Shown: positions 16,270-62,500 of the stretch, one piece after another
Layout of the letters: each line of letters starts with the position of its first letter
Numbering within the stretch: position 1 is the stretch's first letter
Assembly (NCBI RefSeq): GCF_023055435.1
Contig: NW_025964223.1
Location: 10,044,001-10,108,000 of the forward strand
Direction of reading: 5' to 3'
Source of the DNA: Haliotis rufescens
Taxonomy: Eukaryota
Length of the DNA: 64,000 nt
Position numbers and translations under genes: made by a program
The notes under the pieces: generated by a model
Told to the model about the DNA's origin: nothing
Seen by the model: the letters and a program-made list of their open reading frames with translations, nothing else
Database searches by the model: none

Positions 16270-18101
16270 TGGCTCCATCGTCTATGGTGGAGCCTGCAAA
16301 AGTAATTTACAAAAACTCGATACCATCCATCATCAAGGCCTGAGGCTTTGCCTTGGAGCTTTTAGAACGTCTCCCATTCACAGTCTCTATATAGAAGCAG
16401 ATGAGCCTTCTCTTAAACAACGCCGTTTAAAATTATGTTTACAATACATCACTAAATTATATTCTAATCAGTCCAATCCAGCTTTTGAATGCATATTCAA
16501 TCCTCTCTACGAAGATCTTTACAATAAGAAATCAACACTTACTCCACCACTCGGAATCAGAATAAAATCTGCAATATCAGCTTCTAATATTCAACTCCAA
16601 GATATAGCTCCTACTAAACTTTTCTCATCTCCTCCTTGGCAAATGGTAAAGCCAGAGGTAGATCTTACATTAACAAAACTAAAGAAATCAGACACTAACG
16701 AATTAATTTACCAACAGGAATACAGTCAATTAAGAAATAATTATGACACTTATAAATCTATCTTTACAGATGGATCCAAGGATGGTGGCGCAGTTGCTAG
16801 TGCCACCGTCATTGGATCCAGAACAATATCTTCACGTTTACCTGATAACAGTTCCATATTCACTGCAGAAGCAAACGCCATTTTACAGCACTTAAATATA
16901 TCAGTAATCAAGCTAAACATAAACAATTCATACTGTTTTTAGATTCTCTTTCATGCCTTCAGGCGATTAAAAATATGTCACCTAAACATCCACTTTTAAT
17001 CGAAATTCTCGAATTATTTAATGATCTTGCTACTGGCCAATATGACATCGTCTTTTGTTGGTTACCAAGCCATGTTGGTATCATTGGTAACACAATGGCC
17101 TATGCTGCTGCAAAAGCAGCACTCAACAAATCTGTGACACCACTTCTGATTCCATACACTGATTTTAAACCCATGATTCGATCTTACATCCGAGATCTTA
17201 TGCAACAGAAGTGGGACGCCCAAGTAGGTATAAATAAATTACATGAAATTAAACCAAATATCGGTTATACCTACTTGGGCTGTCAGTCCAGATTTCAAGA
17301 GGTCATTCTAAGACGATGTCGCATTGGCCATTCCCGATACACTCACGAGTATTTATTGCAAGGTGAGGATCCTCCGTTTTGCATCCCTTGTGATGAGAGA
17401 ATCACGGTCAAGCATGTCCTGCTTGACTGTATTGATTTTGCCATCACAAGGGATCAATATTTCAACGTTTCATCTATAAAGGATCTTTTTAACCTCAACT
17501 CTCATTTAATTCTTTGATTTTTAAAAGAAATTGAATTGATTAATAAATTTTGATGTATAAAGTTATATATTTTATCAATTGGTAGAATATGATTATGAAC
17601 TGAGATTGTTAGTGGTTGTACCCTTGATGGGGGTTGAAGTAGCGTAAAATTATTGTCCCCCTGAGAGGGTGCGTAAACCCACTTCATTCAAAGTAATTTA
17701 TATATACCAGGTTTTTAATCGTAGAATATTTGTTTGTTTTAATTTTGGCTAAACTTGTCCATAATCATCAGTAACCGAAGGGATGGTGTAAATCCTGCCG
17801 GGGTCAATGCAGGTAGCAAAGGTACTGTAAGTCCCCATGGTCCCCGGTATGGTGACCTACCTTTTGGTTGCTGGTGATATATAGCCCAATTTTACGTTGT
17901 ATTGTAATGTATTGTATTATATGAATTTGTAGTTTTATGATCACTCACTAGTTTTAAACTGACATCTGTGATAATCTAGTACTTTTACTGTCCTTTGTCG
18001 ACAGGTTTATATTCTCAATTGATGTATTGTTTAATTTGATATAATCACTATATGGCTGAAATATTGCCGATGTGACTTTAAATTTTAACTCACTCACTCA
18101 C
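16270..18101 (+). mobile_element. 5'-truncated I/Nimb-type LINE (RT C-term, RNase H, Cys motif, full 3' UTR, (CTCA)n tail)
   Basis: IFTDGSK, FTAE, WLPSHVGIIGN RNase H motifs; 13-bp TSD TCTGTATGTAACA at 16257-16269 and 18102-18114. Confidence 0.93.
17764..17878 (+). ncRNA. Candidate structured RNA domain in LINE 3' UTR (copies at 139-252 minus, 53187-53300 plus)
   Basis: 18-bp closing stem and 12-13-bp inner stem with compensatory substitutions among three copies. Confidence 0.65.
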
Positions 18102-19098: not shown

Positions 19099-19263
19099 AT
19101 GCTTGTCGTAAGAGGCGAGTCAGTCTCGCTGACTTGATTGATGCTTGTCATCGTATCCCAATTGTGTGGATCGATGATCCTGATATTAATCACTGGATTG
19201 TATGGTCCGCCGTCATATAGCTGAAATATTGCTGAGTGCGGCGTTAAAAAAACAACCATCCAA
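19099..19263 (+). mobile_element. Retroposon family S1, 5'-truncated
   Basis: GCTTGTCGTAAGAGGCGA through tail; TSD CTATGAT. Confidence 0.8.
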
Positions 19264-21559
19264 CTATGATATCTGCATACATGGCTTCTCTATTGGAATT
19301 TTATCATTTGCGGTCAGTGTCCAGATATTGTTCTTCAATTTGAATTTTAAAATGAATATTGTTGAATCATAACTTTGTGTGCTGCAAGAACGCTTTAGTA
19401 TTTTAAAGGTATCAATCATCCTTCTGTTGATGTATATGTTTGCAGGTAATGCACTCCACTAAAGACCTACTAAAGTGTACCGTGTAGTTAAAAGTGACAA
19501 GAACATTTTTTCCCTTATGAAAATAAATCTTCGCTAAAATTGAACGAAGCCGACGACATCATAAGCAAATATGTTTATAAATCACAATAAAACAGTGATG
19601 ATACCAGGTTTATAACAAAAGGAGAGCCTTCCTACCCCACCAGTGACACCCGTCACCGTTGACTAAAAGGACATTCATGCTGACAGGAACAGAAAGGAAC
19701 AAGTTTAATAATATACTCTGCAAAATAAAAGAAACGCAAAAGTGAGTTTAGATGTAAATTTCATATGAATTATCAACAGATGGAAATCGATTGTTCAAAC
19801 TTGGAAAACATCATTGTCATTAATCCAGGTTCCATATGGCACACAATTGGTCATCTGTTCTTGACATGTTTTCGCTGTTCACCTGCTGTACATGTAAGAT
19901 TGTGATATCAAATGTTCTATTGCGAACACATATACTGCCAGCGCTCATGATTGCCACATCTATTGCACGAATGAATGAACATATCATTAATAATCTTACC
20001 TGAGCTCACTGTGTGTTCTGAAGTCAAATCGCTGTAAGGCATCCTGCACGGCTTCGTTAACGTTTACCCTCAAAAGTACGATAGAAAAATCTGCGATTCT
20101 GTACCATGTGTGTTCAATGTTCGACTGTATTTTTTGCGACAGGTGTTCGTTTATTTATTAAAATTCCACACATTCATAAATCATATTGAGTTGCTCGCCT
20201 CTTCTCCAGTTGATCACACTCTCCACTGATGCTTACTGCTTTGATTAACTGGAGGCCGGATATAACTAGTTACAAACTCTGTTCTAATTATGCTAATTGA
20301 GAAAGCGCATTATACTAGATGACAAACTTAGTTATCCTGTCGCACTAATCCTTGTTTGTATATATTAAATTGTATATATTCATATTTGCCGCTATTAATG
20401 ATAAAATTTATTTTACCGTCATTGTTTAAAACCACTCTGAACTACTTGTATGTATAGATCATCTTAGGCGAACGTTACAAATCTTCTATTTCTTTATTAT
20501 GTAAAATGCTGTCAACATGAATAAATGCCAACTATTCCATAACACTCCAAATGTAGTTGTCATAATGAACATAGTTTTAAACTATAATTGTCACGTGCAA
20601 TAATACTGTCCGGTATTATTAATAATATTTTCAATATCAACCACATATTGTGTGAATCCAGTAAGAAGAAACTGAGTGAAGCAGTGGTAAAATCTATCCA
20701 TATATACAAAATTGTATATTTTTGGATATACCATTATACAAAATTGTATATTTTTCGATGTAACATACATACAAATTGTATATTTTGTATATATTGCAAT
20801 TTTCCCCTGTGAACGTTTATATAGCCCAACAAGTGATGATACACGTGCATGTCATGTTCGTGTGTTACGGTGCCAGGCTCTCACGTGGTTCTGTTTCTTG
20901 CGAATTCTTCATGTTTTCACCAAATCCCTGCAGTACATCATTCTTTCCACACAAATCAATCCCAATACATGTAGAAATGCATGCCGAAAGTCCTTTTTGG
21001 TATTAATTTCGTTTAACACTCAGCAACAATCTGGGAGATATTTACGATTTTACTACCTTTGCGAGGGGTTTTATTTGCAGATAATATGAAATATTATGCA
21101 AAGGAAATGTTATATTCTAAATTCTAAATTATTCAATGGAGTATTTCTGAAACGCATTCTGAAAATATTGGAAAATGTAAAATATGTGTTTATGAAATCC
21201 GACAAGGCGACCACCATACCCTCTCCATAGCAATTGACACAAACGACCTTTAGTCCCTATTCTCTGCACACGAGTGTACAGCGGGTGTCAGCACCATACC
21301 CGTGCTCGTGGGTAAACGTGTAAGACCTGCATCACTTCGGGCTTTCCTCCAACATTAAGCTGACACGCCGTGATATGACTGGAATACTGTTAAAAGCGGC
21401 GTTAAACCCAACTCACTCACTCACTCACTCACTCACTATTACCATCTATCACTTTTATTCATGCATTATTATTTTGCTTACCCTCGTTGTAATGTCACTA
21501 ATTGTTATGAATTGTAATGAAACTAATTTCCTTTATTTACACTAAAGGACCCAAGAATC

Positions 21560-22441: not shown

Positions 22442-22550
22442 AATGGTTATGCGCAAGGTTCTGGGTCGGGATAAGATTATTAGAAGCATTGACGGCACTT
22501 GTGAAGAGCAAATTCCACGTGGTGAGTGCTGGGAAGCGCTAATGACTCTT

Positions 22551-22622
22551 CCCCCGTGTGGACCCAGGGTAGAATGTGTCCTCAGCACCCAATTGCTGGT
22601 CGTAAAACGCGACCAAATTGGG
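22551..22622 (+). ncRNA. Candidate structured RNA (H-type pseudoknot + internal-loop hairpin) at LINE 5' end, shared with S1 heads
   Basis: Manual alignment to 57634-57725 and 11746-11837 with structure-preserving changes; function unknown. Confidence 0.55.
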
Positions 22623-25600
22623 CAGTCTCCTTGCAGTGGGTTGCGTCCCTGTGTCGGCGGAGGACGGTAGTCTGGTGGTTGAGGGCACTGGATCCAGGAA
22701 TAGTGTTCCTATTGGCTGGTCATGTCGAGCCCTGTGCATTATTTTATTTGCGCAATCATTTTAATTGAAATTTGACTTATACTTTAGGACTTGACCCAAT
22801 TATATATTTATTTAAGCTTGAATTTTGCTTGTGAAATCTTTCAGATGCCTAGACTCGTATATCCAGAAGGCGGTGGCTCATGGGCCAATCCGGTGGATTA
22901 ATTAATTTTTAATTAATTCTTCTGCTTGAGTATACCATCTCAGTATCCTTGGTGCCTACAGGTGGAGATCCACTGGTCTTTATGACAGTCCGTGGTGGTG
23001 AGGAGCTGGGGTGTTGAACCATATACAAAATCAACATGGCACAACCAAAAAAAAACAACCAAAAACGTTCCCTGGATGATTCCTCAGTTGAGGTAAATAC
23101 TATTTTGAAGAATTCTTCAAACAACAGTTGGTCTCGATTTTTAGTGGTTACTGCTTCTGATGGTACCCCCTTGAAGCTTAACCCATTTGCCATTTCTAAG
23201 GCACTTTATGACATTGCTGGTTATGTACAGGATGTCGAGAAAATTAGATCTGGATTTCTGCTGGTGGAATGCAAAATCTCCAAACAATCTTCAATGTTGC
23301 AAGCTGCCAAACAGTTGGTTTCCACCCCTGTTCTGATTCCTCCTCACAAAACTCTAAATTCAGCAAAGGTATCGTCAGAGACAGGGATCGTTGTCTCTGT
23401 GATAAGACAGAAAATGAAATAGCCGCCGAATTACAAGATCAGGGAGTCACAAATGTCAAACGTTTCACTTACAAAAGAGATGAAACAATTTTATAGTCAA
23501 ATACCTATCACATGACCTTTTCAAACCTTTCCAAACACACTTCGATGTTACAAGTTCCAGCAGTTTGGGCATGGTGCCCAATCATTCAAAAATCACAAGA
23601 TCTGCCATCAATGTGGAGAACATGACTATGAACTGATGAGAAATGTACAAAATCACCTGACTGTGCGAATTGTTCTGGACATCATGTGACTTCCTCAAAG
23701 ACCTGTCCACAGTTCAAACTTCAACTCAAAATTGTACAATTAAACCTGAAAAAAACATAACATTCCCTGAATAAAGCGTTTGGTCAAGGCTTCTACCTCT
23801 CCAAGCACAGCTGTATCCTACTCGGCAGCTGTCTCTTGCATACCTTCAAAATCAGTCATGTCTGTGCAATTCCACACTGACATTACTTGGATTTTGGCAG
23901 ACAACTATTCTTTGTTACAGTCCAGTGCTTCTTCAAAAACAGATGAAGCACCTGTGTCAACGCCATCAGTAGCAACAGCACCACCGGCAACAAAGGCAAC
24001 TCCTGTTGTAAAAAGTGCAAACAAAAACGTTGATTACTCACAAAAATCAGACTGTGTACCAAAGGGTCACCGTGACCCTATTCAATTTTATAACCGATAC
24101 CAAACCTTAGAGGACATGGATGTCTCTCCTCATCCTAATGGGCGCAACAGAAGTAAGCCCCCTCGCAATGGGAGACGTAGATCTCCTGTTCATCCACCAA
24201 TAACTTGATATTATGAATCCACTGATTCAGTGGAATTGCAGAGGTCTTAAAACCAATTTTAATTAATTACATTTTTTAATACAAGATTTTAACCCATCAA
24301 CAATCTGTCTCCAGGAGACATATCTCAAACAGACTGACAACTTTGATTTACGTCGGTATAGTTTCATTTTCTCCTCCAGGTGTTAATGCTGCTGTGGCGC
24401 TTCAAAACAATCTTCAAGCTGTTGCAGTAAGACTGACTTTGCACATAACATTTCCTCTGTGCTCTCTATATATTTCCTCTTCTTCTGCGCTTCAGCAATC
24501 AGACCTTCAATCACTATATGCCCAGCTCCCAAAGCCCTGCTTGATCATGGGTGATTTAAACGGACATAACCCATTTTGGGGAAGGGTTGCCGTTAATCCT
24601 AAAGGTAAAGTCCTTGAAGATTGTATTTCCGATAACAACTTGTCCATTTTCAATAATGGATGAAGTACATATTTAAATCCTGCTACTGGTACCTATTCCG
24701 CTTTAGATTTGTCACTTACAGATTCCAAACTCTTAAACGAATTTACATGGTCTGTTCACAATGACTGGTGTGGAAGCCATCATTTCCCTTCAATCCCAAC
24801 AGCAAATAATCCATCTGATGTTCCACCCACATCAAGGTGGGTTGAAGCCTGATGAGTTCAGAAATGTAACTGATCCTATAGCTGTTTTCTAATATTTTAA
24901 ACGAAATTGCCGGCATAACCATTCCAAAGTCCTCTGCAAATCCACACATTCGAAAACCATGGTTTGATAAAGAATGCAAACAGGCTAGGAAGAGTAGGGA
25001 AAAGGCTGAGAAATATTTCCGCCGACATCCAACTGTCCATAATTTCAATCGTGTTAAGATTACAAGTGCCAGGGCATGCCGTACCTTCATGCAAAATAAG
25101 AGTAAGTCTTGGAGGAATAACGTCTCTAAAATTAATTCTCGCACGCCTATATCCATGGTGTGGAACATGATTGCAAAAGTTAAAGGCAAAGGTTCAAAAT
25201 CGAGTGTCCACCATCTCAAAGACCGTGACCATCTGTTAACAGATAAATCAGACATTGCCAATAAATAAGTTAAACGCTGGCCAAACACTCTTCATCATCA
25301 AACTACGATCCTAAGTTTCAAAATTATCAGGAAGAACAGGAAAAGAAGAGGGATGATTTTACTTCTCAAGATGGAGAAGATTATAATGAGGTATTTTCGC
25401 TCCACGAGCTAAATGCTGCACTAGGTCAAGCGCACGACACTGCAACGGGAGATGATAATATTCATTATCAGCTCCTGAAGCATTTGCCTAATTCATGTTT
25501 AGAGACGCTTCATGATATATTCGATCAGATCTGGACGTCAGGAAATTTTCCGTCTTCGTGGCGTAATGCAATAGTTGTTCCCAACTATTGCATCCAATTA

Positions 25601-27790
25601 TCGACTAATATCACTAACCAACAGTGAGTGCAAAACCATGGAGCGAATGGTAAACAATCGACTAGTGTGGTACTTGGAAACTAACAATCTTATAAGTAAC
25701 AACCAATGTGGTTTCCGTCAAAATAGAAGTCCTATCGGGTACGTATAGAATCTTTTGTCAAAAATGCAATTGTCAAAAATCATCATGCAGTATCAATCGT
25801 TTTTGATTTAGAAAAAAGTGTATGATACCACATGGAAGCATGGTATTTTAAAAGATCTACATGATTTGAGGTGAAGATGCCGTTAACAGGCGGGCAATTT
25901 CGTGTGGGTTCCACCCTGTCTGACCATTATAATCAGGATCAGGAAGTCCCACAAGGCAGTATTTTGTCTGTAACTATGTTTAGTATAAAGATTAATAGTC
26001 AAAGGTTTTAAATTATTGCATTCCCTTTTTCCGGACGACTTCAATATTTCATTTCATGGAAAAAATATGCATACCATCGAGAGACAGTTGCAGCTTTGTC
26101 TCAACAAAATCAAAAAATGTTGGCTCGAAAATGGTTTTAAGTTTTCCAAAGCTGAGACCAATTGTATTCATTTCTGTAGGAAATACAAGCATCATAAAGA
26201 TCCAGAGCTATTTTTACAAGGCACTCCTGTCAAGGTTGTAGAAGAAGCCAAGTTCCTGGGTCTCATTTTCGATCACCATTGACTTTGAAGCCACATATTG
26301 ATTATCTTGAAACTAAATGCCTAAATGCTCTAGATTTGTTGAAAGTTATTGCTAATACAATATGGTGAGGTGATCAGACAACCCTCCTCCACTTGTATAG
26401 ATCCGCTCTAAATTAGATTATGGCTCCATCGTTTATGGTGGAGCCTGTAAGAGCAATTTACAGAAGTTAGATTCGATTCACCATCAGGGCCTACGACTCT
26501 GTCTTGGTGCATTTCGAACATCTCCTGTGGACAGCCTATATGTAGAAGCTGGTGAACCTTCATTGAAGCAACGCCGTATCAAATTATCACTACAATACAT
26601 ATCGAAATTACATTCTAACCCATTAAACCCTGCATACAACTGTGTTTTCCAACAACTTTATGAACATTTTTTTTACAGTAAGCCTAAGCTGGTCCCATCA
26701 CTTGGCATTCGGATTAAACCCCATATTACAGCTGCCAATATTGATTTTGATAATCAATATTTGATAATATTTCTCCTTTCAGGCTTTTGTCGTCTCCTCC
26801 TTGGCAACTTATCAGACCGGAAGTGGACTTTACTCTTACACAATTTAAAAAATCACAAATCAATTGATGTACCAACAAGAATTTATAGAAGTTAGAACTA
26901 AATATGAATCCCACCGCTTCATTTTAACAGATGGATCCAAGGACGGTAGCTGCCGTCATTGGATCAAAAACCGTATCATCCCGCTTACCAGACCATAGCT
27001 CAATTTTCACAGCTGAAGCCAAAGAAATATAAACTGCTTTGGAATATATCCAAAATCAGTCCAGTTGTAAATGGTTCATCATCTATTCAGATTTATTGTC
27101 GTGTCTACAGGCAATAAAATCTAGCTCTTCACATCATCCATTCATTTTAGATATTTTAGAACTATATAATGACCTTACGACATCGTCTTTTGCTGGTTGC
27201 CCATTCATGTTGGAATCACGGGTAACACTATGGCTGATGCTGCAGCAAAAGCAGCTCTCAACAAATCTGTGAGACCACTTCTTTTCCCATACAGTGACTA
27301 TAAACCTGTTATTAGATGCTATATCAAAGACCTAATGCAAAAGAAGTGGGAGACCCAAGATAAAACTAACTATTGGTTACACCTACTTGGGTTGTCAGTC
27401 CAGATTTGAAGAGGTCATTATGCGACGTTGTCGTATTGGCCATTCGCTCTATACCCATGAATATTTATTTAAAGGTGAAGATCCTCCATGCTGTGTCCCT
27501 TGTGATGAAAGAACCACAGTTAAGCATGTCCTGCTTGACTGTATTGATTTTTCCATCACAAGGGGAACTTGTTTCCAGGTTTCATCCAGAAAGGATCTTT
27601 TTAATCAAGTTAGTACTCGTTTAATTCTTGGTTTTTTTAAAAGACATTGAGTTAATAGATATTTTTGATAAGATGTATTGTAAAAAGTAAGTGATTAAAA
27701 TTTGGTAAAATGATGATATAACTGTGATTGTTAGTGGCTGTACCTTCAAATGGGGTTGAAGTAACGTAAAATAATTGTCCCTCTGAGATC
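22551..27790 (+). mobile_element. Near full-length decayed I/Nimb-type LINE: structured 5' UTR, gag-like ORF1 (~23036-24208), ORF2 APE-RT-RNase H (~24213-27650), 3' UTR truncated
   Basis: ORF1 zinc-knuckle remnants (CYKFQQFGH, CANCSGHH); ORF2 begins MNPLIQWNCRGL, then LQET, MGDLNGH, VPQGSILS, FPDD, KFLGLIFD, TDGSK, WLPIHVGITGN; many frameshifts. Confidence 0.92.
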
Positions 27791-27839: not shown

Positions 27840-30190
27840 TTTAAGGAATGTTCAATTATGTTCATATTTTCGTATGCCAAAATTTCACAGCCATATAATA
27901 ATATTAGTAATACCATTACATCTAAAGCCTTAAGTAAACAATCCGAAGAAATATTATTATTACTAGAAAACAGAACCTGGCTTTAGAAGCACTGTCCACT
28001 AAACATTTTATTGCTGGCTTGAAATTTCTGTGTCTACTAAATAGAACACCTAGATACGTATAATTGTCTGCGATATCAATTTCCGTATTCTCCAAATAAA
28101 AAGATAATCTACTGTTTTGATAATCTGGAGTTCAGCAAAGAGGACAGTGTCATTAACATAAGAAGGGTTAAGAAACAGATACATAAATGTACATGTAAAG
28201 CGTTAACACCACCAATTTTCACACTCGTGCATCCGTTTTTCACAAGGATTTTTTCAAGAACATTGACAAAATAAGAGTGGTGAAAAATGTTCTCCTTGCC
28301 GCACATCCGGGTGACATGGGAAATAATCTGATATTACGCCATTTACAGACACACATGGTCTTATATTTGCATACATATTTTGAACTAACTGCAAGAAATT
28401 ACCCTTCATACCATTATCTTATGCCACAACTCTCCACACATTATAGAAGGCTTTTGAAAAATCAATGAAAGCGCAGAATAATTGTTTAAGAATTTGAATG
28501 AGCATATCCAATACAAAAATGTTATCATTTGTCGAGTAACCCTTTCTAAATCCGGCTTGCGCTGAGGTTAAGACATTATTTACCTCAAGGAAATTATGTT
28601 ATCTATTATTGAGAACAGTGGTGAAAAGTTTACCAAAGCAGCTGAGTATTGTAATGGGTCTGTAAGCGTTAGGGTCTGAATTGGTACTTTTCCCCTTGTA
28701 AATAGGACGTATAGAGCAAGAGAAAAATGCCTTAGGTAATATTCCTGAAGCTAATATCAAATTGAAATAATCGACTAATAATCTTCCAAAGACTTTAAAC
28801 GAATCAATAAAATAGTCGTTCTCAATTTGGTCAGTCCCTGTGGCTTTGTTACGTTGAAGACTCTGAATGGACAATGATATTTCATCAAAGGTTAAATCAT
28901 TATTCAAAACATTGTCATCATGATTAATTTAAAACTTCCTTTTCTTCATTTATTTCTACATAACCCATATGGTGTTCATCATTAGTGTTCTTAAAATGTT
29001 TAAAAAAATCAGTAGTATCGGGTGTTTTCGAATTTTGGTTTCTATTGCTCTCATTGAGGATTTTCTAGAATTCTTTAGGTGCATATTTAGCTTTTTCTCT
29101 TGTCACTGTACTAAATTCTGCTTTGTACTTATAAATATGTTTCTTAATGCACTTCTTATACTCTTTTGAACTTTGTCGAGAATAAAGTTTATTAATTTCT
29201 GATTTACGTTTAAACTATCGGCGTTTTGAATTATAAAATGTTTCACGTTTATTTCGACATTCTGTCCTAAACCAGGGTTTGTGATTTTGACATTTTATCG
29301 GGCCATGGCAAACTGGACGCCTTTCCCCAAGCGTTGCACGTGCTGCTTCAGTTAGCAGATGCGCGATCTCCTCAGCAAATTAATTAATAGCACATGCTTG
29401 GTCGTCATGATTTCAATAAATTGGTTAGTTGTGGGACAGCTTCTGTGTTGATATTATTTACAAATGCATTTGTTTTATTATTTTTTATAATGTTTAGGTT
29501 TTGCATAGCGATCTTTTAGGGGGATGTTTGAAATGATGTTTTGCATACTTGCAGTACTGACTGTGGTTGTATTACTACTATTTCAAGTGAGTGCAAACAT
29601 ATGGGGACAATGGCTATCTGAGCACGGATGGGAAAATTCACCAAAATAAAATTCATTAAAACATGGAAGGCATATACATGAAGATAGGACATAATCAACT
29701 AAAATGGAATCTTTACAAGTAACTTTATCAACTCATTTGTCTTAAGCCTGCCATTACATATAAACATATTGGTATTCTTACATAACTCTACCTGCGTAAA
29801 TCCTTGGCCATTGACTGTTCTTTGATCTTGATTACTTCGTGTAGTTGGTAAAGATAAGGTTGGTTGGTTGGTTTGTTGTTTAACGCCGCACTCAGCAATA
29901 TTCCAGCTATATGACGGCGGTGGTAATGATAAGGAGTGAAGTACATTTTCAGGTTCATATTTATCTTTCATCTTTCTTCAATGTCTTTATCAAGTTCTTC
30001 ATACCGTACCATGCTCTACCAGCACTTCCCCCACAAAAATAGCATAACACTTCTCCTAAATCCTCCCTCCCCCTTCCTGGCAATCTTTTCAACTATATCA
30101 AACGTCATTAAAAACAGGAATCTGCAAAGCAAATTTTAGAACTGTCCCACACAAGACACCTTTTATATACAAATATCAACAAACACCATT
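27840..30190 (-). mobile_element. Decayed RTEX/CR1-type LINE ORF2 fragment, with a nested S1 tail (29860-29920, TSD TGGTAA(A/T)GATAAGG)
   Basis: NKATGTDQI, PIYKGK, YRPITILSCFGKLFT, QAGFRKG. Confidence 0.8.
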
Positions 30191-38618: not shown

Positions 38619-38639
38619 ATATATATATTTATAGCTATT

Positions 38640-42179: not shown

Positions 42180-43104
42180 CACTAACAGATACATATATAA
42201 AGATTCTTTAGTTTGTACAGATACGAGGCGAATTGAAGTATGATAGTTTCCAGATGTGTTGATCGAGTATATTCTGTTTCAGCCCCAAATAAGAATGATA
42301 ACATATTTGTTTCGTCTTGCATTTCGAAATCAACATATTTTTTAACGTCAAGTAGGTCAACGATAAAAAGAGAAAAACGCATTTCTGTCTGATATAAGCA
42401 CTTCCCAATGTAAAATAATGTGGTTATCATGGTCGAGAGCACGCTCATTACAGAGCTTGCACTCGTTTACTGCATGATGAGACTTCGCACAAGTCGATAT
42501 TCCAGATACAGAAAAGCTAATTGCCAAAGTTTATGGTATGTTAATTTCGTATGAATTCTCTTTATAACGGGACGTGCTTGGATTATTTAATACATTTATG
42601 AGCCATATTTGTTCTTCGTATTTGCATAAAGTTTCATAAACAAGATTTCTCCATTTCAATTTTGGAAGGAAAGTGAGCAGATGCACAACGGTAGGTATCC
42701 AACAGATCGGCATGTTGACCCTTGATGTCAGAGAGTAATTCACATCCATAAAGGCTGGTTTTGTCTATTATTCTGAGCCATATTTTCACGCTTGAAACTG
42801 GATGAAGATCATAATTATTTAATCCTAAGGATATAGGGAGTTAATATTTTGTCATGCTTTCTGTCAGAATTTTTCAATTATTGTTTTACAAGAAAGATTA
42901 TACGTTAAGAGTATTCAACCATACACCGTAACATCAGTAGTGATGTGTGTATCACCAAGTTTACAGAAACGTTATGCCCATTGTGGCTTGCTTTGGTGAA
43001 CGCAATTATTGCACTTTTTGATGGATTATATGTTAGGCGCCACCTTGAAGCATATGTATATACAATATCAAGGGTTGTTTGTAAGCCAGTGCCTCCACGT
43101 TTTA
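42180..43104 (-). mobile_element. Highly decayed LINE RT/C-terminal remnant
   Basis: VLL.....GLQTTLDIVYTYASRWRLTYNPSKS, the post-YADD RT segment. Confidence 0.65.
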
Positions 43105-43745
43105 GTAAAACCCATGTCGATAGTGTACCCACGTTGACAGTGTAACCCACGTTGACAGTAAAACCCTTGTCGACAGTGTATCCACGTTGACAGTAAAACA
43201 CATGTTGATAGGGGACCGGCGTTGATAGCAAAAGCCATGTCGACAGGGGACCCACGTCGACAGTAAAACCCATGTTGACAGTGTATCCACGTTGACAGTA
43301 AAACCCATGTCGACAGTGTACCCACGTTGACAGTAAAACCAATATCGACAGTGTATCCACGTTGACAGTAAAAGCCATGTCGACAGTCTTTCCACGTTCA
43401 CAGTAAAACCCATGTCGACAGTGTATCCACGTTGACAGTAAAACCCATGTCGACAGTGTATCCACGTTGACTGTAAAACCCATGTCGACAGTGTACCCAC
43501 GTTGACAGTAAAACCTATGTCGACAGTGTATCCACGTTGACAGTAAAAGCCATGTCGACAGTCTACCCACGTTGACAGTAAAAGCCATGTCGACAGTGTA
43601 TCCACGGTGACAGTAAAACCCATGTCGACAGTGTATCTACGTTGACAGTAAAAGCTATGTCGACAGTGTATCCACGTTGACAGTAAAACCCATGTCGACA
43701 ATGTAATCCACGTTCACAATATTACACCTGTCGACATTGTACCAC
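43105..43745. repeat. 35-bp minisatellite (GTAAAACCCATGTCGACAGTGTATCCACGTTGACA)n, ~18 units, made of 18+17-bp related halves
   Basis: Seen directly; explains the overlapping repetitive minus-strand ORFs. Confidence 0.95.
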
Positions 43746-44034
43746 ACGTTAAAACATATATACACCAGTAGCAAAACGATCGTGGTATCAGGTAAATGGT
43801 CCTGTATAAATGCACATTACATATGCTTGATTGAAAACGTGGACAACATTCTGTCTGTTGTTAATTGCTGCACAACGTGTTCTGTTAAACTGACGACATG
43901 ATGCACATATTTGTGCGTTGTTTTCACACGAAGTGTTAACTGATCACATATAAAATTACAACATGCTTTCATGCTATTGTTTCCTTCAGTTCCCTGTTAG
44001 TTTCTCAACTAGCGGTTATTGGTTTTCCAAAACG

Positions 44035-44589: not shown

Positions 44590-47500
44590 GTATGTATATT
44601 CAGTGAAACATCGTGATCTTGTGGCATCCTTATGAATGTTTCTATCTTGTCAACATCTACATATTTGTCAGTGAGAGAAAAGGTTTATTTACGGAAATAC
44701 GCATATTATCTTGTTTCGTATAAATTGGCCGTCGTTATATAAGTGCATCTATGGATATAATCAGAGGGTACAAGGACATACATATTTTAGCACGATGCTG
44801 CTTATACCACCACGTTAAAACAAATATGTGTTTATTAAATGACAGACCCGTGAAGTTTTAGAATAGGTCTTCAGCAACCCATGCTTGCCGTTAAAGGCGA
44901 CTATGCTTGTCGTAAAAGGCGACTAACGGGATCGGGTGGTCAGGCTCACTGACTTGGTTGATGCATGTCATCGTATCCAAATTGCGTGGTTCGATGCTCA
45001 TGATATCAATCACTAGATTGTCTTGTCCAGACTCGATTATTTACAAACCACCGCCATATAGCTGGAATATTGCTGAGTGTGGCGTAAAACAACAAACAAA
45101 CAAAACAAAAACTTAGAAAACGTCGTTTATGGCTTCACAGTATCGGTGTTAAAAAGTTACAAAATTCTTCTGAAATGATATATAACAACAGCTGAACATT
45201 GTGTGTGCACAGTATATAACCAGGGTACATGTAGTGATCTAAGGCGTAGTAAATCGCTGTGCATATCTGTGGCCCTACGCAATGCCGGGATTCTATGATT
45301 ATGTGTTCAAATTCGCATTGAAAATGGTTATTTTCTTAGGGTTTCACCAAATCGGTAAAGATATAAGACATGTATTAGTTGAATAGTGTATTACGTTGTA
45401 GCATATACATCGGTTGTTATAGTTTACACCATAGACTTATTACAAAACCAAGATATAACGTTCTGTTAACTATAACACGGAAGAATATTATTGACATCTA
45501 TTCTTTTCTTACATATTTGTGTTCAACAATGCAAAGACTGCAAAATATGAAAAACATATTACAGGTCGGCATATCGCAGTTATTATCTTTTGTGTTATAG
45601 TAATGAGTAATAGATAAACATTATCATTTTCTGACATCACTTTCTGATATATGAACTCTTGCAACATGTACGCCCGGGAATACTATTACTATTCCAAATG
45701 CAACAATGAGTAGGGATCAGAGCAAAACATCCATACACGGCACGAAAAAGCCAATTTCCTAACGTTCGGAATACGAAAAGCCTACTGCAAATGCAGATGA
45801 AACTGTGCCATCAACGCAACTTCAAGCAAACAACAGACCACAATCGAAATCAATAATACGAGGGCTGGTCAAAGAAATGAAAGCCTAACAAACAAAACCA
45901 ACTAACGTGAAATGTGAAATTATATTTTTTCACTAGAATCTCCATGCTTTTCAGTACACTTCTCATATCGACAGTGAAGCTTTTCAATTCCAGACAGGGA
46001 GACGTTTTCTGAAGCCACCCTGAAAAACCCATTCATGGCAGGTCTGAGGTCATCATTGTCGTCATAGCTCTTTCAATTAAGGTGTTCTTTCAGTTTATGA
46101 AACAGGTGGAAATCACTTGGTGTCAGGTCTGGCGTGTATGGAGGGTGATGTAGCTCTTCGAAACCACATTGTCGCACAGCAGCCTTTGCAAGTGGAGAGG
46201 TGTGAGAAGAGGCATTGTCATGAAGTAGTAGAACTCTAGTAGTCAGCATTCCTCGCCGCTTTTCTGTGATAGAATCTCTCAGGCGATGAAGCAAATCAGC
46301 AAAGGAAGCACCGGTAATCGTCTTTTGACTTTCTAAGTAATCAACAAGGGTGCATCCAAGAATAAAGTGGTCACAACTGTTTTCACTGGTCATGAAGACC
46401 TCGAATTCCTTAGGTGCCAGAGAAGTGAAATGGTGCCATTCCATGGATTGACGTTTAGACTCGGGATCATAGTGGTAGTCCCGCGTTTCATCACCCGTTA
46501 ATAATCTCTTTTTGAATTTGACGAATTCTTCCTCAATTAGATCAAAATATTTTCTGGCAATGTCAGTAAACGTTGGCGCACAACGAGAAGCTATCTTATT
46601 CATTTGTAAATGTTCATGAATAATAGGTTCAATGGATCCATGACTTTGACCTGTGTCTTCCACAAGTTCAGCAATCGTTATACGTATCTGACAGTATAAG
46701 TTTTTTCTATCTCCTTGATTGAATCGTCTTTGATGGAAGTTGGGACGTCCAGACCTAGGGTCATCATCAAGGCTTGTTCGCTCAGCCTTAAACGTAGCTG
46801 TCCAATGTTTAACAGTGGAATAGCTGCGGCAGTTATCCCCATGTGAATATCACTTTTCACCCTGGTGTTCAGCTTTCTCGGAAGCTTGACCACTGTTGCG
46901 GCGACGTGGTTATTATTCTTGTCATTGTCATTTCTACTACCCTCACATTTTATACCACTGTACTGGATATTGTACAACCCCTCTATTGTGTACTGTCATT
47001 GTAATTGATATGCAGTAATTTGTATTGATTAATATACAGTTTTTTGGTTTCACACCAAATTCTTTCTGGGCTGACATATTGTTTCAATTTGGAAATCGAC
47101 TCGTAACACCAAGTAGTGGTTAAGGTAGTGCCACGTAGAAGACAGTAGAACCACAAATACTCTGGCAGTTAAAAGTTATACAATGACTCTCTATGGATAA
47201 TTTCATTAATGTTTTCGAGTCCACATTTCCTGTAATGCATTCTGAAAGACACCGAGATAGATACATAGATACAAATAGACGTTCCCCAGCTTGGTTTAGA
47301 CACTGTGTTTTTGTGTAATTAATAGGCTGTTCACTAAAAGCCTTTAGGTTATTTCCCCTCCCCTCAATCACCACGATTACGCCCTCCCTACGTCAAGGCG
47401 TAGTACTTGCGTAGTGAGCGATTATCTCGGGACTGGGGTTTGATATCAGGTTATCACTATCGATAATACTAAAAAAATTATTTCTAGAGATATCTTGCAC

Positions 47501-50500
47501 GGCGGATAAACATTCCCAACACCATTTCATCACGTTCCGAATATGTGTAAATGTATCATGTGCATCACTTTCAAATCACATGGGAATTATTCCTCTATTG
47601 TTTCCGTTAATTTCAAACCTATATAAAACTGATGACATAAAATTCATTCTTTCTGTTATGTTTCAGCACCGTTTAGAATACATGGAAATGAATCATTTTA
47701 CATTCGTTCCTAACATTTGGCAGATATAAAGACATGGTTGTACATGCCATAATTCTTTTCCTGCACAGTTCAGTATATACATGTCCTAATTTATCTGAAA
47801 CTGATCAGGTATTTCGTAGGCCATACCTGGTCGGATGTTATATTTTATTGTATGTGTACGTTTTTTTAGTATGAATTGTATACAACATGTGACACTATAA
47901 TAAACATTATTCTTTTAACCTTTGTATTTTTAAATGGATACTTACTCCGGCGATTCAATGAAACAATCAGCAATGCGTGTGAATCAATATGTTTCTGCAT
48001 CATATTGATCATATTTGTTACGCGTAGTGGCACTATTATGGCGCAAACGAAGTGAATGTTTGGAAAGTATGAACATTTTGCTGCAATGAAGGCTGTCATT
48101 TCAACAGCTATTGTCATTTCTCATACAAGCCTCTGTAACAAATATTTTTTTTAATTAACATTTGTATATGGGGTGACAAATTATTTTTTTAATTATTACT
48201 GTGAACTAATGTTGTTTGTTTGTTTGTTGAATAACGCCGCATTCAGCAATATTCCAGCTATATGACGGCGGTTTGTACATAATGGAGTCGGGATCAGACA
48301 ATCTAGTGAATGATATCATGAGCATCGATCCACGCAATTGGGATCGATGACATGCATCAACCAAGTCAGCGAGCCTGACCACCCGATCCCGTTAGTCGCC
48401 TCTTACGACAAGCATAGTCGCCTTTTACGCCAAGAATGTGTTGCCGAAGACCTAATCTACCCCGAATCTTCACGGGTCTGTGAACTTATGACACCCTATA
48501 TACTGATATAATGCCGATCCATTAAACATTTATCTCACTCATTCAGTTTGTTACACAATGATAACTTGTTTACACATATGTGCCAACGCAGAACTCAATA
48601 TCCCGATAGAACTATTTATAAGTGCGGCCTGGTTTCGTATGTGTTATTCTGGTACCGTGAGTTATGTTTCGTCAGTTCCGCTGTCAACTATTGATGTGCA
48701 TGCTCCCTATTTGATTACTGACATGTCTCTGTAATAAAACTGTAAAATAAGGTAACACGATGACGACAACATAACACTGACTTGTTCAATCAATCTTTAT
48801 TTCGTACTCAAGAGGCCACAGGCCTTTAGTACATAATACATTTCAACATAATTAATCATTACAATAGAACATCAAATTGAAATAAATTATCTCCCACATA
48901 TATACATCATGACAACCATAAATATGCTCATTTTATTCTGGCATAGATATTATTTAATTAACAATTTCATTTCCATGGGCAAAAGCATTGTAAATAAACA
49001 TCGATAAATTCTTTACAACCCCTGTTCTCTCACATTTAAATAAACTTATACTTGTTTCTCTTGTCAGGTGCGCTATTCCAGGATTTGCCAATGACACCTA
49101 CAAAATCCAGAATGACCTTCACGAACAACTCGTAAACCGCTCCATTCCCAGGATATATGGTTACTATGGTAACGAAAAATATTCCCAGTGCCAACTGTAT
49201 CGACAGACCAATGCCTCCAATGTTTGGTCAACAAGAAATATCACAGAGCCATGTAATGCCTGGGTTTACGACCAATCACAGTTCATATCCACGGTTTCAG
49301 AGACGGTGAGTTATTATCATTCAGGTTGTTGCAATCATTATTAAATACCAGTACCACATTATTTACATGTTTTGTCCGAAAACAATTGAAACAACCTGTA
49401 ATGTACAAGCCTTTTGTACATTTCGGTCAGTAGACAGTGAGATGAATCATATTGTATATGTTGTATGTGATACAGCATACCGTAAAGATATACGTTATTG
49501 CTACATGAATTAACGTATATCACCACTGATCTTACTGACTGTTTGTTAAATGTGCAAAAACAAAATGGGAACACGTTCTAAATCACCTGTTTCGATTTGG
49601 CAACGTGATAGTTCGTGTGACGTCACCTATATTCGTGAGTCTGTTCCACGAAACTACTTCTTGTAGCATAATGGCTTAAATCAGCCTTGTATGGCTACAA
49701 AAGTGCATCTAGTCCATCTAAATGCATTGTATATTACTACACAGCCGTGACTCGAAGTAAAATAACTTCTGTCACTGGTGGAGTGCAATTTCCCCACGTT
49801 CCACCGACCGTATCCTCGTGCGAGAGACTACTTCCGGTATGACGTCACTTTGTTGACAGTTTGATCGGTTGTACTTTTTCTGATACGAGAGTGAAAGCCG
49901 GTTCGAGCCGAGATATGTGAGTTGACATTCAAGTATTTTATATTTATTGTACATCTTCCTAACTGAATGAAATACTGAAAAGAATAATTATATTCTTGTA
50001 AATTAATAAATCTTATTGTGCAATTCTTAATTGTGAAATTATTCTTAAAAAATTAAATAATTAAAACTGTGTGGTTGGTGGTATTGGGAGTGATCCACAA
50101 TTCGCTACCAGAGCTGTACCCCAATACCCACCCCCTGAACCGTTACACAACCTATTCTCCAAAAGAAATCAGACAAGTATATAATTTTTGTATCCGCCAT
50201 AAAGTGAAGTAGGTGAGATGAAATGGGTGTTTACATTGTTTACATTATAACTCATATTGCGACACTTTGTGTAAGGCTGCTTGAACTACACAGGACTTTC
50301 GATTTTTAATAGTGCTAGCCCACTGAGATACCATGTCGCAGTTTAACGTTGATAACCCACTCAGTCACACTGTACTGACTCCAAGCCGGCCAGTCCCCCG
50401 GTTTTTTTTCCCCTTAACACTGAGCATCTGCTGCAGGCAGCGTAACAAGTACAAGGTATAAACGTCTTTACCGTCTACATTGTCTCCACAAAATAATGTT

Positions 50501-56500: not shown

Positions 56501-59500
56501 CGTAAAATCTTTGATTGGGATTGAAAGTCCATGAGAAAACACTCCTCCCTTCGTAAGGCAACAAAAACAATGTTCCGACATGACTGAAGTCCCAGTATAC
56601 TGACTTGTCACAACAACTTATCACACTTGATGACATTCATTTCAGAACACGCACAGCTGAGCAAATCACACACGAACCACTCACGGTTTCCGGGCCACAA
56701 CTGCCACATTACTGTGACACACTGACGACGAATTCTGTGAAATTTTGAAATTGACAGGTCAAATCCAATCCCTCCAAAATAGCCGTACGCCACGCAGTTC
56801 CATTTGTCAATCAGATGTGCTGTGCTTTTTCACGACTGTTTAGTGATATTTTTATGGTTGTATGATAGTTTTAAATATTAATCTGTGATATTCTGGTAAT
56901 TGTACTGTCAATCGATGACAGGTTTTTATTTAGTTTAGATATATGTATAAATAAGGTATTACTTCTCGTCACGATATGGCTGAAATATTGCCGATGTGAC
57001 GTAAAGCATAAACTCACTCACTCCATTTGTCAATGACGTTGCACCATCAGTCTCATTCCCAGTAAATCTACAGGTTAATGTTGAACCACATACTAGATCG
57101 GGGTTGTCATCTTAGCGCTTGCTTTGTGTAACTAGACAAAGTAACGGGTGTTGTAAACAAATCCATTGGCAGTAGCAGTGATGTAGGTCAAGTTTTGCCA
57201 CATCCCAGTTCCTTGAGTGAGTGAGTTGGGTTGAACGCCGTCTTTAACAGTATTCCAGTTATATCGCGGCGTGTCAGCTTAATGTTGGAGGAAAGCCCGA
57301 AGTGATGCAGGTCTCAGACGTTACCACTTTGGTGAAACCCACGAGCACGGGTATGGTGCTGACAATCCTAGAAACATAATCTGGGCGAACCGGGATTCGA
57401 ACCCACAATCATAGGTTTCTGGCGTGCACAAGGGACGCAACTCTGCTCAGCGAATCGAGGCGCCTTAGACAACTGTGCTACCCGTGCCCCCACTATTTTC
57501 TGGAACAACAGCTTCTCAGATCCACTAAATGCCACCTGTGTTTAGTCTGTTTCTGTTTTAACAATTCGTTAACATCTCAGTGGCTGTCAGCTGTATACGG
57601 CGTACTGGGAAAATCACGCATTACTTAAGATTTGACCCGTGAAGATTCCGGGGTAGAATAGGTCTTCAGCAACACATGCTTGCCGTAAAAGGCGACTATG
57701 CTTGTCGTAAAAGGCGACTAACGGGATCGGGTGGTCAGGCTCGCTGACTTGGTTGATGCATGTCATTGATCCCAATTGCGTGGATCGATGCTCATGATAC
57801 TAATCACTGGATTGTCTGGTCCAGACTCGATTATTTACAGACCGCCGTCATATAGCTGGAATATTGCTGAGTGCGGCGTTAAACAACAAACCAACCAACC
57901 AACCAACCAACTTAAGATTTACTGCCCTTCCCATGTTAAAGGTCATAGTCATCGGGATAACCTACAGACAGTACTATTGCAGACCATTCCCACAAAAATG
58001 GGCAACACTCTCTTCCTCCTGATACCTAACGGTGTGGTTAGTCGCCGTGTCATGAAGTGGCGATTGGTTTTATGATAGTTGTATCACACTGGGTACATCA
58101 CACTGGGTACATAATACACTACACAATCGAGGGTATGGGACATGTGTAACTAATAGCTGCGTATGTTACATTCTCCAAAGGTTAGTACATGAGTACTTAT
58201 ATATACAGATACTTGTCACAAAACTTTGAAGTCGGATGATATTATTCCAGAAGTCAGATGGTGTAACTATATTTGGCCTCCAATAACCCATGTTTGTCAC
58301 AATATGCGACTAAACGGATCGGGCTGATCAGTGCAGTGACTTAATGATTGCGTGTCATCGTGTCACGACTGTGTGGATCTTTGCAATAGTATTAACCACT
58401 AGATTGTCTGGTACAGATTCGATTATTTCAAGGCCGCTGTCATTTAGCTGGACCTTGTTGAGTTTGGCATTAAACAACAACGACTACAATGTGGTACTCT
58501 AAATGGGTATAATTGTAATCTACACAGTCCTGCGAGTGAAGTACTATATGTATGTTGGAACAGGCATGGAGATAGTCGGTCCCTCTAAGCGTATGTGGGC
58601 AGGGGTTGCCATGAACCTCTTCTGGAGTTTGGGGAACCTTGTGACAGCACTAACGGCCCATCTCTTCAGGGACTGGAAGACTCGACAGCTGATTGTCAGT
58701 ATCCCGACGGTTGTTTTTGCTTATGTATAGTAAGTATTGGACTCTGATGTACTTCATACGTATCACAAACATGAACATGTGCAAACTATGTATAGAAGGT
58801 TGCAGTGAAACATGTACAGTAGTATTGTTATTTTTAGTATCGCCTCATCGAAGTAATAATACGATGGAAAAAAGAGAATATTTATCTTTTGTAGTTAAAT
58901 TGTACATGACTTATATCGGAATAATAATAACTTGTCATGTTTAAAAAAACAGTGAAGGTTACTAAATTTTCGCATCTCAGTTGAAAGCGTCAGTGACTTA
59001 CCAACATATGATTGTTCAAGCAAAGAACCATTTCCAATACAGTATTCTTAAGTTACATTCATATTTTTTTATATCCAAAGAACAAGTAATTCCTGACATC
59101 ATGAACATGTGATATGGTCTATATTAACTTATTGATGTTTACAGGAAAGCTCTGTCCATTTAGTTATGATAACCGGGTTAATAATATTTGTTTTCATCAC
59201 AGTTTTATCCCAGAGTCTCCAAGATGGCTTCTGAAACATGGCAAAGGAGAAGAAGCTAAAAGAATAGTTGCAAATATTGCGAAGAAAAACAAAGTTCAAA
59301 TAGATCCACAAATACTTGGTGAGGTCGATATCGAAATGGAAGAGGTAAAACAAGAACCATTCTGGAATCTTTTGAAGTCTTCTGTGATGGTGCGTCGAAT
59401 GATCATCATCTGTTATAATTGGTACGAGTTTATTCCTAACATAATACATTCTCACCAAATTTAAAAACAATAGGAACAAACTAGTAATTCAGCCAGTAGA

Positions 59501-62500
59501 ATCTTATCAGAACTACTGTATATAATATGTTTCATGAAGGCTACCTGCTCTTAGTTTGGGAACATATTGTTAATAGTCGTAAAATCCTGACACAATTGTG
59601 TAGATCGAGGGTCATCACGATTATCTGGTCCAAACTCGATTATTTACAGACCGCCGTCATATAGCTTAAATATTGCTGATTGAGGCGTTAAACAGCAAAC
59701 AAGCAAACAAGAGGAAGAAATTCCTGCGGGGAAGTAAAGTTTACATTGGAGTCAACATAAACATAAAGTCAAAACAACTGTTTTATTCAGTTTGTACGAG
59801 TAAGTGAGATAGATTTGAAATATACTATACATTCCTTCCGTCGAAGGTCACGACAGAGAAAAAAGATATAACTGTCATTGTTTTTCCAGGTTTGCAGTAG
59901 GAATGAGTTTCTACGGCCTCAGCATGAACGTCACCAACCTCTCTGGTAACATCTACCTCAACTTTCTCTTGTTCGTCATCGCAGAGGCTGTTGCATACAT
60001 TTCTTGTTTTTTCCTAATGGATCGCATTGGCCGCAAGTTGCTGCTGTCTATGTCTCTGTTGGTAACAGGAGCAGCTTGCATTCTTCCTTTGGTTCCAGTA
60101 CTAGTTTCAGATACACGTAAGTATCTGTACAAAAATCACAAACATGTTAATTAGTGTATGTATAAATACTGGATCAACGATTAAGGTGTCATTTTTGTAA
60201 GACTTCACACATAAGCATGCACATTATATAATCATTTATACAAAATAAAAGAAGGAAACATATTCACTGCTCATGATGTTAAGATATTATGTACTTTGTA
60301 TCATGGGGTAGAGGCATATATATTAAAATAGACCCTTATGGCCACATACAGGACCAGGTTGATGCATATCATCGATCCCAATTGCGTGGATCGATGTTCA
60401 TGATGTAAATCTCTGGATTGTCTGGGTCAGACTCGATTATTTACAGACCGCCGTCATGTAGCTGGAATATTGCTGCTAAAACAATAAACCAAACCAAAAC
60501 CAGTATGTCAACTGGGTATGAACTCAAAGACACGGCTCAGAAATAGCAACATTTTGATTTGACACAAAAACCTGAAGACATATTCTGCTTTTGATGAGAC
60601 ATATATTGCAGAGCCAACTGGAATTTTCCAACATGGGTTATCAAAAGCACAAAGGATTTGCCTTTATGTTTGAAATATCAGAAAGGATCCAAGTTCTATC
60701 TGTCAAAAATGTTGTTTCCACTCTGGGTACCACTATCTTACACGAAGAACGTATTGAAAAAAATATTCATTGATCCTTGATCACCATATGTGTACAGGAA
60801 CATCTCTATTGTGAAGATTCGGGGGAGGGGGTGCGGTCGGGTTGTCTGGTGGTTAAAGCGTTTGCTTGTCACGCCGAAGACCCGAGTCCCGGGTTCGATC
60901 CCAACATGGGTACAATGTGTGAAGCTCATTTCTGGTGTCCCCCGCCATGATATTGCTTGAATATTTCTAAAAGCTGTGTAAAACCATACTCAGTCACTCA
61001 AGGTTTGGGAAAGCAAATGTTATCTGATGTTTACCATTAAAACAAATACTTGAAATGCTGAACGTGATCTGATATGTTTCAATATTGGTCATAAAGCTAA
61101 TACATCTCCATTGATTTACCCCACCAGCGGAGAAATGGGCCATTAACATCCTCGCCATTGTAGGGAACATGTGTGCCTCTGCTGCCATGTGTGCCGTCTT
61201 CACCTTCACAGCTGAACTCATGCCAACCACATCAAGAACATTTGGCATGGCATTAAGTTCCGTCTGTTGTAGAGTTGGAAGTCTACTTTCTCCCTACATT
61301 GTTGGCTTGGTAAGTTTTACCAAATCTTTGTGATTGCAGGTTTTATATGTTTAGTGTTAACTGAGAAAACTGGGAATCAACTTGGGGACCTGTTTAACTG
61401 TCAAATGAATTGCAGACGATTAACAATGTGATACTGGGGCATCGTTCTTAACTTTATGAATACCTTATGATTTCATACATGTCGGTCATCATTTGAAATA
61501 GAACACTCACAAATAACCCTAACATTTCAGACGATGTATATATCAGGACGTTTCGGACAGATTCTGCCCATGCTGGTATTCGGGGGTATCGCCATCTTGG
61601 CGGCCTTTCTGGCTCTGCTTCTCCCGGAAACGCTGAACAAGAAGCTACCGGAAACCATCAAAGAAGCTGAGATGCTCGGGACGTAAGTGCATGTAGTATT
61701 AATAACTATCACATCAGTCCCAGCATGAATTTATCCATGTGATTGGTTTACGCCCAGTAGCTGATTCAATTCAAGGTGTGGGAAGTCTATAGCTGTTTAA
61801 TTCCCGCCTATCCTCCATATCTGTCCCAAACGACTCACTCACATTTCCAGCCACTTTCAGTATCATGACTATGACTCATTTCGTTTTAAGCCTAATTTTA
61901 TTGCGTATTCAGTCCAATTACCGATCAGTTTCAGTCACGTTTCAGTACACTTCTCGAAAAAGTAGGGACCACAGTTAGTTCGATTTCAGTCCAACATTCG
62001 TCTTAGTCTCGTGTATGGTTTATTTCATTAAAAATACTTTTATCATTCATCCGGACAAATATTTTGAAACCTTGACTTTGGAGTCGATCCCTGCAAGCAA
62101 TCATATGTGCACCCCCCTCTATGCCACTGATATAAATTGCAAAACACAACACTACCTTATTACGTCCCATACATTCAGCTGCAAGGTGTCACTGGCACCT
62201 TTATATAGAAACATGCTTATCTTTGCATTTCAATGTGCAACCACGACGGTACTGTATATAACTATCACTTCAGTCTAAGTATAAGGTCACTAGTAGGCAC
62301 ATTCCCAGGTATGAGGCTCGAGTTTCATTTCAATATCAGTCCATTTCAGTTTCACTTCACTTTCAGCCCAGTTTGAGTTTAATTTCAATCAAATTCCGGT
62401 TTCAATCTCGTGAATGTTCTTTTTTTCTGGTAAATCTGTTATTCAACTGGATTGAATGAAATAGTGTAAAACCTCGAGGTTAAAGTCGAACCTAATCATA

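Follow-up and report, generated by a model that had tools for sequence, protein, structure and literature searches.

How do LINEs, and SINEs without a tRNA head, acquire exact 5′ ends when no promoter is evident? The question is raised by a short interspersed element, S1, in a 64,000-nt stretch of the Haliotis rufescens genome (contig NW_025964223.1, positions 10,044,001–10,108,000; hereafter the window). A sequence-only reading had taken S1 for a bipartite mini-LINE that keeps only the two cis-acting RNA modules required by the LINE enzyme. S1 is real and its class is already described, and the 'minimal two-module LINE' is not supported by our analysis. Absent from the literature searched are the pseudoknot fold predicted for the module at its head, the presence of this module in viruses and a pair of LINE versions that carry or lack a hepatitis delta virus (HDV)-like ribozyme motif in front of it.

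The boundaries of S1 were drawn correctly in the sequence-only reading: an 11-nt target-site duplication (TSD) lies on both sides of 252 nt plus CAAC/CAAA repeats (Table 1). The tandem duplication of a 22-nt unit (copies begin at 57677 and 57699) is also confirmed, and it marks a younger subfamily with a median divergence of 6% (n = 20) versus 17% (n = 7), as measured in loci not selected for S1. The earlier estimate of about 11 copies or fragments in 64 kb agrees with our count of 10 clear and 2 weak ones. TSDs had been reported on the copies, and we found them for five of the ten window copies tested, two of these being 6–7 nt; among the 30 best S1 copies, 26 have them. Of three hairpins that had been named, two are present as written, but the strand CATCGATCC of the third exists in the family consensus only and reads CATTGATCC in the focal copy. 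One 26-mer of S1 has 27,276 exact matches in the 1.33-Gb genome. In 160 kb of DNA (16 arbitrary 10-kb stretches), 31 body-containing matches, 13 of them full length, correspond to some 190 copies or fragments in each Mb and to 3.3% of the DNA, with one or two short matches that may not be S1. A tail-only fragment at 29858–29921 on the minus strand is 100% identical over 64 nt to positions 57841–57904 (+) of the focal copy. Three small-RNA runs of a related organism yielded few reads and no pile-up at the 5′ end; such reads do not address 5′ ends. Antisense reads of 31 nt that start with U were found on S1 (63 and 9 molecules sharing one start) and on the LINE module (127 sharing one start); they resemble piRNAs, although they may have been copied from single molecules.

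Table 1. Features of the window, with positions counted from its first nucleotide.
Feature	Position	Strand	Remark
S1 element, full length, CAAC/CAAA repeat end	57634..57909	+	
5′ TSD of S1, 11 nt	57623..57633	+	Abuts first G
3′ TSD of S1, 11 nt	57910..57920	+	
S1 head, predicted pseudoknot domain	57634..57668	+	Covariation and covariance-model match, 57.7 bits
S1 head, 22-nt hairpin unit, two tandem copies	57677..57720	+	Younger subfamily only
S1 middle, no LINE homology	57722..57838	+	Possibly a decayed tRNA-derived head
S1 tail, predicted stem–loop	57842..57885	+	Common to LINE and tRNA-SINEs S2 and S3
S1 copy, full length	48214..48478	-	TSD found
S1 copy, near full length	44845..45108	+	Small deletion in head
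S1 copy, full length	11747..12004	+	
S1 copy, middle deleted	9373..9540	-	TSD found
S1 copy, old	58259..58480	+	Without 22-nt duplication
S1 fragment, 5′-truncated	19099..19264	+	
S1 fragment, 5′-truncated	59614..59710	+	
S1 fragment, 5′-truncated	60357..60498	+	
S1 fragment, tail only	29858..29921	-	
S2/S3 copies	57216-57485, 4141-4415, 54750-54850	-	
Broken I-group (Nimb-like) LINE copy	22494..27788	+	3′ end missing
HDV-like ribozyme motif, true LINE 5′ end	22494..22551	+	Mutated in this copy
Module in LINE 5′ UTR (second module)	22551..22622	+	91 bits; in model by construction
3′ end of another LINE copy	18040..18100	+	Stem–loop and TCAC repeats
Other repeats, as listed: another LINE with RT, Penelope-like RT, two Tc1/mariner-like transposase remnants, ~35-bp tandem array	32083-34809 (-), 37745-38641 (-), 46073-46849 (-), 55331-56027 (+), 43087-43750		By eye, in the ORF list

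The module at the head of S1 very probably specifies a structured RNA, predicted to consist of a pseudoknot and a hairpin. In the predicted pseudoknot, the loop of the P1 stem pairs with a strand beyond an AGAAT linker. The 5-bp stem, 7-bp pseudoknot helix and 6-bp hairpin of this model are paired in 92% of cells across 31 S1 and LINE sequences, compared with 31–48% in slid controls, and 7 of the 18 pairs show compensatory double changes. Two tree-robust covariation measures were not significant (127/500 and 174/500), and because the aligned sequences are related, the covariation represents a handful of independent events. Rfam scans returned no exoribonuclease-resistant RNA (xrRNA) or ribozyme family matching the module. 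Threading by hand on consensus structures likewise left HDV, twister, pistol, hatchet, hammerhead and hairpin ribozymes without a fit to the S1 head. Tandem arrays of the module or of its pseudoknot half occur with periods of about 49, 36, 76 and 74 bp, two of them in this genome and two in metagenome records.

The module is also found outside this genome. A search with a 20-letter hairpin pattern returned 2 virus contigs and 51 metagenome stretches. Full-length copies lie in a 6.9-kb virus contig that encodes an RdRp, some 20 nt beyond the stop codon (52.9 bits), and between genes in a 212-kb DNA-virus contig (43.7 bits), and the covariance model matched at full length in 22 of the 30 metagenome loci that remained after near-duplicates had been removed from the 51. 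These scores are inflated because the loci were picked by the hairpin motif; 25 viral control loci, obtained with a looser hairpin pattern, scored at most 19.4 bits. In four of the outside records the pseudoknot is near-perfect, each time with a different helix sequence, and a strict pseudoknot test was passed by 8 of 23 outside sequences that have the linker versus 1 of 10 without it; the DNA-virus copy fails this test, and only one clear RNA-virus record was found. As an RNA virus has no DNA promoter, the full-length viral copies, together with those from metagenomes, suggest that the module works as RNA, not as a promoter in DNA. In a group of 12 metagenome loci, the linker of the module holds an extra hairpin, and a contig end is often no more than 70 nt away.

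In the window, the module also lies in the 5′ UTR of a broken LINE. There, as in most LINE subfamilies sampled, it comes second, behind an HDV-like ribozyme motif. The sequence-only reading had placed the 5′ end of this LINE at 22551, which is too far downstream: other copies share 57 further bases, from 22494 onwards, and the element begins with a 58-nt HDV-like ribozyme motif. These 58 nt can be drawn with P1 and a G1–U pair, L3 with UCC, GG, a short P4, the J4/2 C and P2; that is, they hold the nested pseudoknot elements and catalytic C of a predicted HDV-like ribozyme. Among 22 distinct copies, which are too uniform for covariation, G1, U37 and UCC are each present in all 22, the two positions of GG in 20 and 21 and the J4/2 C in 21. 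The Rfam model RF02682 matched at the exact LINE start in four of five loci, at 26–29 bits, which is below its gathering score of 44. With scoring of the best 150 of about 3600–3900 candidates from each Pfam search and retrieval of 24 full sequences, at least 13 intact related loci were recovered; their ORF2 proteins (1227–1238 amino acids, 74–99% mutual identity) contain APE, RT and RNase H domains. Eleven of the 13 intact loci listed start with the HDV-like motif, one is 5′-truncated and one starts at an S1-like module. The APE–RT–RNase H architecture, with an ORF1 zinc knuckle in one of two proteins, is that of the I group. The homologue search returned no clade names, and the LINE probably belongs to the Nimb clade, a label taken from passages of Matetovici 2016 (PMC4758252).

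Several other features were noted around these LINEs. Several intact copies are inserted in other copies of the same family, and many of the top endonuclease matches cluster in one 1-Mb stretch (about 31.1–32.2 Mb). A second intact I-group family (7 loci, 31–34% identity, TAAG repeats) is without the module, and six of its copies are 98–99% identical. A repeated locus near LINE copies contains a different HDV-like Rfam match (30.3 bits, 270–357 +) and a histone 3′ stem–loop match (2818–2863 +).

Of 68 S1 copies examined, 36 bear TSDs, and in 33 of these the TSD terminates at, or extends over, the first 0–3 bases; these 33 begin with the first P1 base, and no flank has been carried over. Natural LINEs of one family come in two versions, which differ in whether the HDV-like motif precedes the module. 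The S1 head corresponds to the extreme 5′ end in the HDV-less LINE subfamily, but not in 11 of the 13 intact loci. In the HDV-less version, 16 of 17 distinct heads open with an identical dinucleotide just 5′ of the search pattern, next to unrelated flanks, and TSDs were seen by eye in three. S1 opens with a G and the HDV-less LINE subfamily with a T, and each of these bases can pair with the one that closes P1. HDV-bearing subfamilies, by contrast, start at G1 of the ribozyme motif: among 41 LINE-type heads, 32 have the full motif, 4 a partial one (one by eye), 4 none and 1 is cut inside the module, and no HDV-type head starts at the module. If the module contained a promoter or a ribozyme, the progeny would lose the HDV motif, and the lack of any HDV-type copy that starts there argues that the module neither starts transcription nor cuts itself. 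Compensatory changes are nevertheless retained in modules behind the HDV motif, where start-setting is silent.

We propose that the module fixes the 5′ end of the RNA by stalling 5′-to-3′ exonucleases, and that S1 would be carved in this way from host read-through transcripts; our confidence in this model falls somewhat short of even. Ribozyme self-cleavage leaves a 5′-OH end, and XRN1/2 do not attack such ends. For this reason, HDV-bearing LINEs would start at their ribozyme with the module behind it as a back-up only, and a decay block, unlike a promoter or a second cut, would leave the HDV motif in the progeny. The place of the module in the RNA virus, where the 3′ UTR begins, would also suit a decay block. 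Against the model, a nuclease that stalls might be expected to leave some bases upstream, and hardly any are seen. S1 itself may have arisen when the module was fused to an older SINE, perhaps a tRNA-headed one whose boxes have since decayed. We hold a wider form of this proposal more tentatively still: that S1 is promoter-free, that a nuclease-blocking pseudoknot of a class not yet described is common to I-group and other retrotransposons and to RNA and DNA viruses, that SINEs bearing it lose their Pol III promoter and that LINE subfamilies switch between module and HDV motif. If true, a nuclease block would be a third route to defined 5′ ends, beside internal promoters and ribozymes, in an element that accounts for about 3% of the genome.

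The strongest competitor, which we judge unlikely, is that the module is an internal Pol II promoter, or that S1 is made by Pol III through its B box, and that the fold serves a second RNA job, for example in binding ribosomes or an ORF protein. A LINE promoter was the idea published for the corresponding head (passages of PMC4758252). It agrees with the terminal position of the head in S1, in one LINE subfamily and in Nimb-17_LMi, I-3_DR and RTE-9_CPB, with the substitution of this head for tRNA heads in Saccostrea and with the precedent of L1Tc Pr77, which is both promoter and ribozyme (all as described in the same passages); the exact B-box match at 57783 would serve the Pol III version. 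A promoter would, however, strip the upstream HDV motif, and no HDV-type copy starts at the module; one LINE subfamily starts with T, and the module occurs in an RNA virus.

The B-box match calls for comment, as the sequence-only reading had stated that S1 contains no A or B boxes. This was too strong, because an exact GWTCRANNC match lies at 57783–57791 in the middle of S1; the A-box-like 12-mer at 57741–57752, 42 nt upstream, has two mismatches to the consensus used in the search, and a comparable pair arose in 3.2% of 5000 shuffles. S1 does not begin with a tRNA-like head containing A and B boxes. ARAGORN at -ps80, which does find the tRNA-headed SINEs S2 and S3, detected no tRNA in S1, and an Rfam scan of S1 was blank; the earlier reading, which a head derived from tRNA, 5S or 7SL RNA would have contradicted, is upheld on this point by these scans, which gave no snRNA match either. 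The 117-nt middle (nt 89–205) aligns in register with the tRNA-Asp-like head of S3 under two of three scorings (P = 0.006, 0.008 and 0.41), and a profile search of S1 against that head was negative; the resemblance of the middle to a decayed tRNA head is weak and suggestive only. At two metagenome loci, the module is followed directly by A- and B-box-like motifs. The same order of head and box motifs is described for scallop SINEs in passages of PMC4758252.

We judge it quite improbable that the module is a self-cleaving ribozyme, of a class not yet described, with its cut at the P1 base and, in HDV-bearing LINEs, its site hidden in the HDV P2 helix. The exact starts at the P1 base are what such a cut would give, as at the HDV motif of the same family; the 3′ strand of HDV P2 abuts the module, whole modules are tandemly arrayed in other organisms and the layout is reminiscent of a pistol ribozyme without P2. 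On the other hand, a linear RNA virus cut in its 3′ UTR would lose its genome end, and at about 190 copies per Mb S1 would cleave many host transcripts. The fold is also kept behind the HDV motif, where no cut is evident, and no Rfam ribozyme matches.

The mini-LINE claim rested on resemblances that are largely borne out. The head is indeed homologous to the LINE at 22551 (78% over 50 nt in the window and 75–80% to intact LINEs), over about 65 nt when the repeated unit is counted once; the 90 nt given earlier include the duplication, which older copies lack. As had been expected of a true LINE component, the head motif is common to the LINE 5′ UTR genome-wide, which shows that 22551–22622 is no stray insertion, and the tail does match LINE 3′ ends (28–32 of 43 nt identical in 15 elements). 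Overall, the head and tail are 65–80% identical to intact LINEs. S1 is not, however, composed of LINE 5′ and 3′ sequence alone, as 46% of it is without a LINE match. Nor is it nearly identical to an autonomous parent among the LINE families, which were sampled incompletely: the head is 75–80% and the tail 28–32/43 identical, and the terminal repeat differs. A search for a closer partner, with a head pattern that excludes duplicated S1, gave 17 matches, all of them S1-like. The proposed role of the head as a cis requirement of the LINE enzyme also fails, as S1 copies truncated at the 5′ end, and tRNA-headed SINEs that share the tail, insert without it, which argues that the enzyme needs no head for insertion.

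The tail has a different affinity. S1, S2, S3 and the LINEs share a predicted 3′ stem–loop with a near-constant 9-nt loop and with stems that differ in sequence but pair. The S1 tail is more similar to S3 (37/43) and S2 (35/43) than to LINEs (28–32/43, the best being the HDV-less subfamily). S1 tails end in CAAC/CAAA in 123 of 140 cases and LINE tails in TCAC in 34 of 34, and no LINE with a CAAC/CAAA ending was present among 261 tails surveyed in about 1 Mb. These identities and differing terminal repeats indicate a shared SINE module of LINE type. S2 and S3 (the latter with a tRNA-Asp-like head, about 165 nt) are two tRNA-headed SINE families that combine a LINE-type tail with TCAC repeats. 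We infer that S1 is mobilized in trans through this stem–loop by the intact LINEs, or possibly by an unsampled partner. The origin of S1 by internal deletion of a local LINE, with retention of just the two cis modules of the enzyme, is very improbable and is already contradicted for the LINEs sampled: although head and tail resemble the LINE, best in the HDV-less subfamily (tail 32/43), with which older S1 heads also share a GGGGA/TCCTC helix, the middle does not outscore shuffled sequence against 15 LINE elements or their UTRs, the tail is nearer to tRNA-SINEs and insertion proceeds without the head.

Among described elements, S1 is very likely the mollusc LP-SINE, which is known from Haliotis, Littorina, Ostrea and Saccostrea under the names Hdi_LP, Hmi_LP, Oco/Oed_LP, Sgl_LP and Lsa_2 (Matetovici 2016, PMC4758252; here and below, in the passages that describe these elements). 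Its head of about 70 bp resembles the 5′ ends of Nimb-17_LMi, I-3_DR and RTE-9_CPB and is added to tRNA heads or, in Saccostrea, substituted for them; LP-SINEs have TSDs and tandem-repeat ends, and the Haliotis consensus is 255 bp long (PMC4758252). S1 correspondingly is short and TSD-flanked, with a tandem-repeat end, a length near 255 bp (252 nt plus repeats) and a head that is homologous to a LINE 5′ UTR (75–80% to local LINEs, together with the model match). Both have an unexplained middle and a head of about 70 bp shared with a LINE 5′ UTR, from a Nimb LINE in LP-SINE and from a probable Nimb LINE in S1. The Haliotis hexamer is AATATA in LP-SINE versus AATATT in S1, which is likened to Hdi_LP and Hmi_LP by description only. 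The fold, the partner LINE of the tail, the HDV motif, the viral copies and the 22-nt duplication, all noted here for S1, do not appear in those passages. The LP head, formerly only guessed to be a promoter, is here a conserved, predicted folded RNA that also occurs in viruses. The module fold, its viral copies and the stacked ribozyme were in no paper found in our search of the open-access literature.

Bipartite non-autonomous LINEs (RIME, NARTc, Bov-A, RTESINE and R2 derivatives) are reported only from RTE, Ingi, Vingi and R2 in the corresponding passages of Kojima 2018 (PMC5786205). They resemble S1 in having LINE-like 5′ and 3′ parts and no ORF, and S1 differs from them in its foreign middle and in being only 65–80% like the local LINEs. 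V and Meta SINEs are reported to have Nimb-related tails (passages of PMC11481361 and PMC4824008). RUDI and other tRNA-headed V, Meta and MESC SINEs start with a tRNA head, whereas S1, compared with them by description, does not; an assignment of S1 to the MetaSINE or V-domain elements is not supported by the published descriptions consulted. HDV-like ribozymes at LINE 5′ ends are listed for the clades R1, R2, R4, RTE and Ingi as well as LOA in passages of PMC5786205, and the LINE described here, an APE–RT–RNase H element that is probably of the Nimb clade, lies outside that list. Known HDV-like LINE ribozymes and the motif in this LINE have the same elements, and copies here start at G1. Unlike in the listed LINEs, the motif here is stacked before a second structured module, and S1 is without it.

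xrRNAs are known from flavi-, tombus- and luteoviruses; the literature that we searched gave no report of exoribonuclease-resistant RNAs in retrotransposons. The module differs from viral xrRNAs in having no Rfam match, and its fold is likened to theirs by prediction only. It resembles them in its predicted compact pseudoknot, in its position at the start of the 3′ UTR in one RNA virus and in the exact 5′ end that each would be expected to leave.
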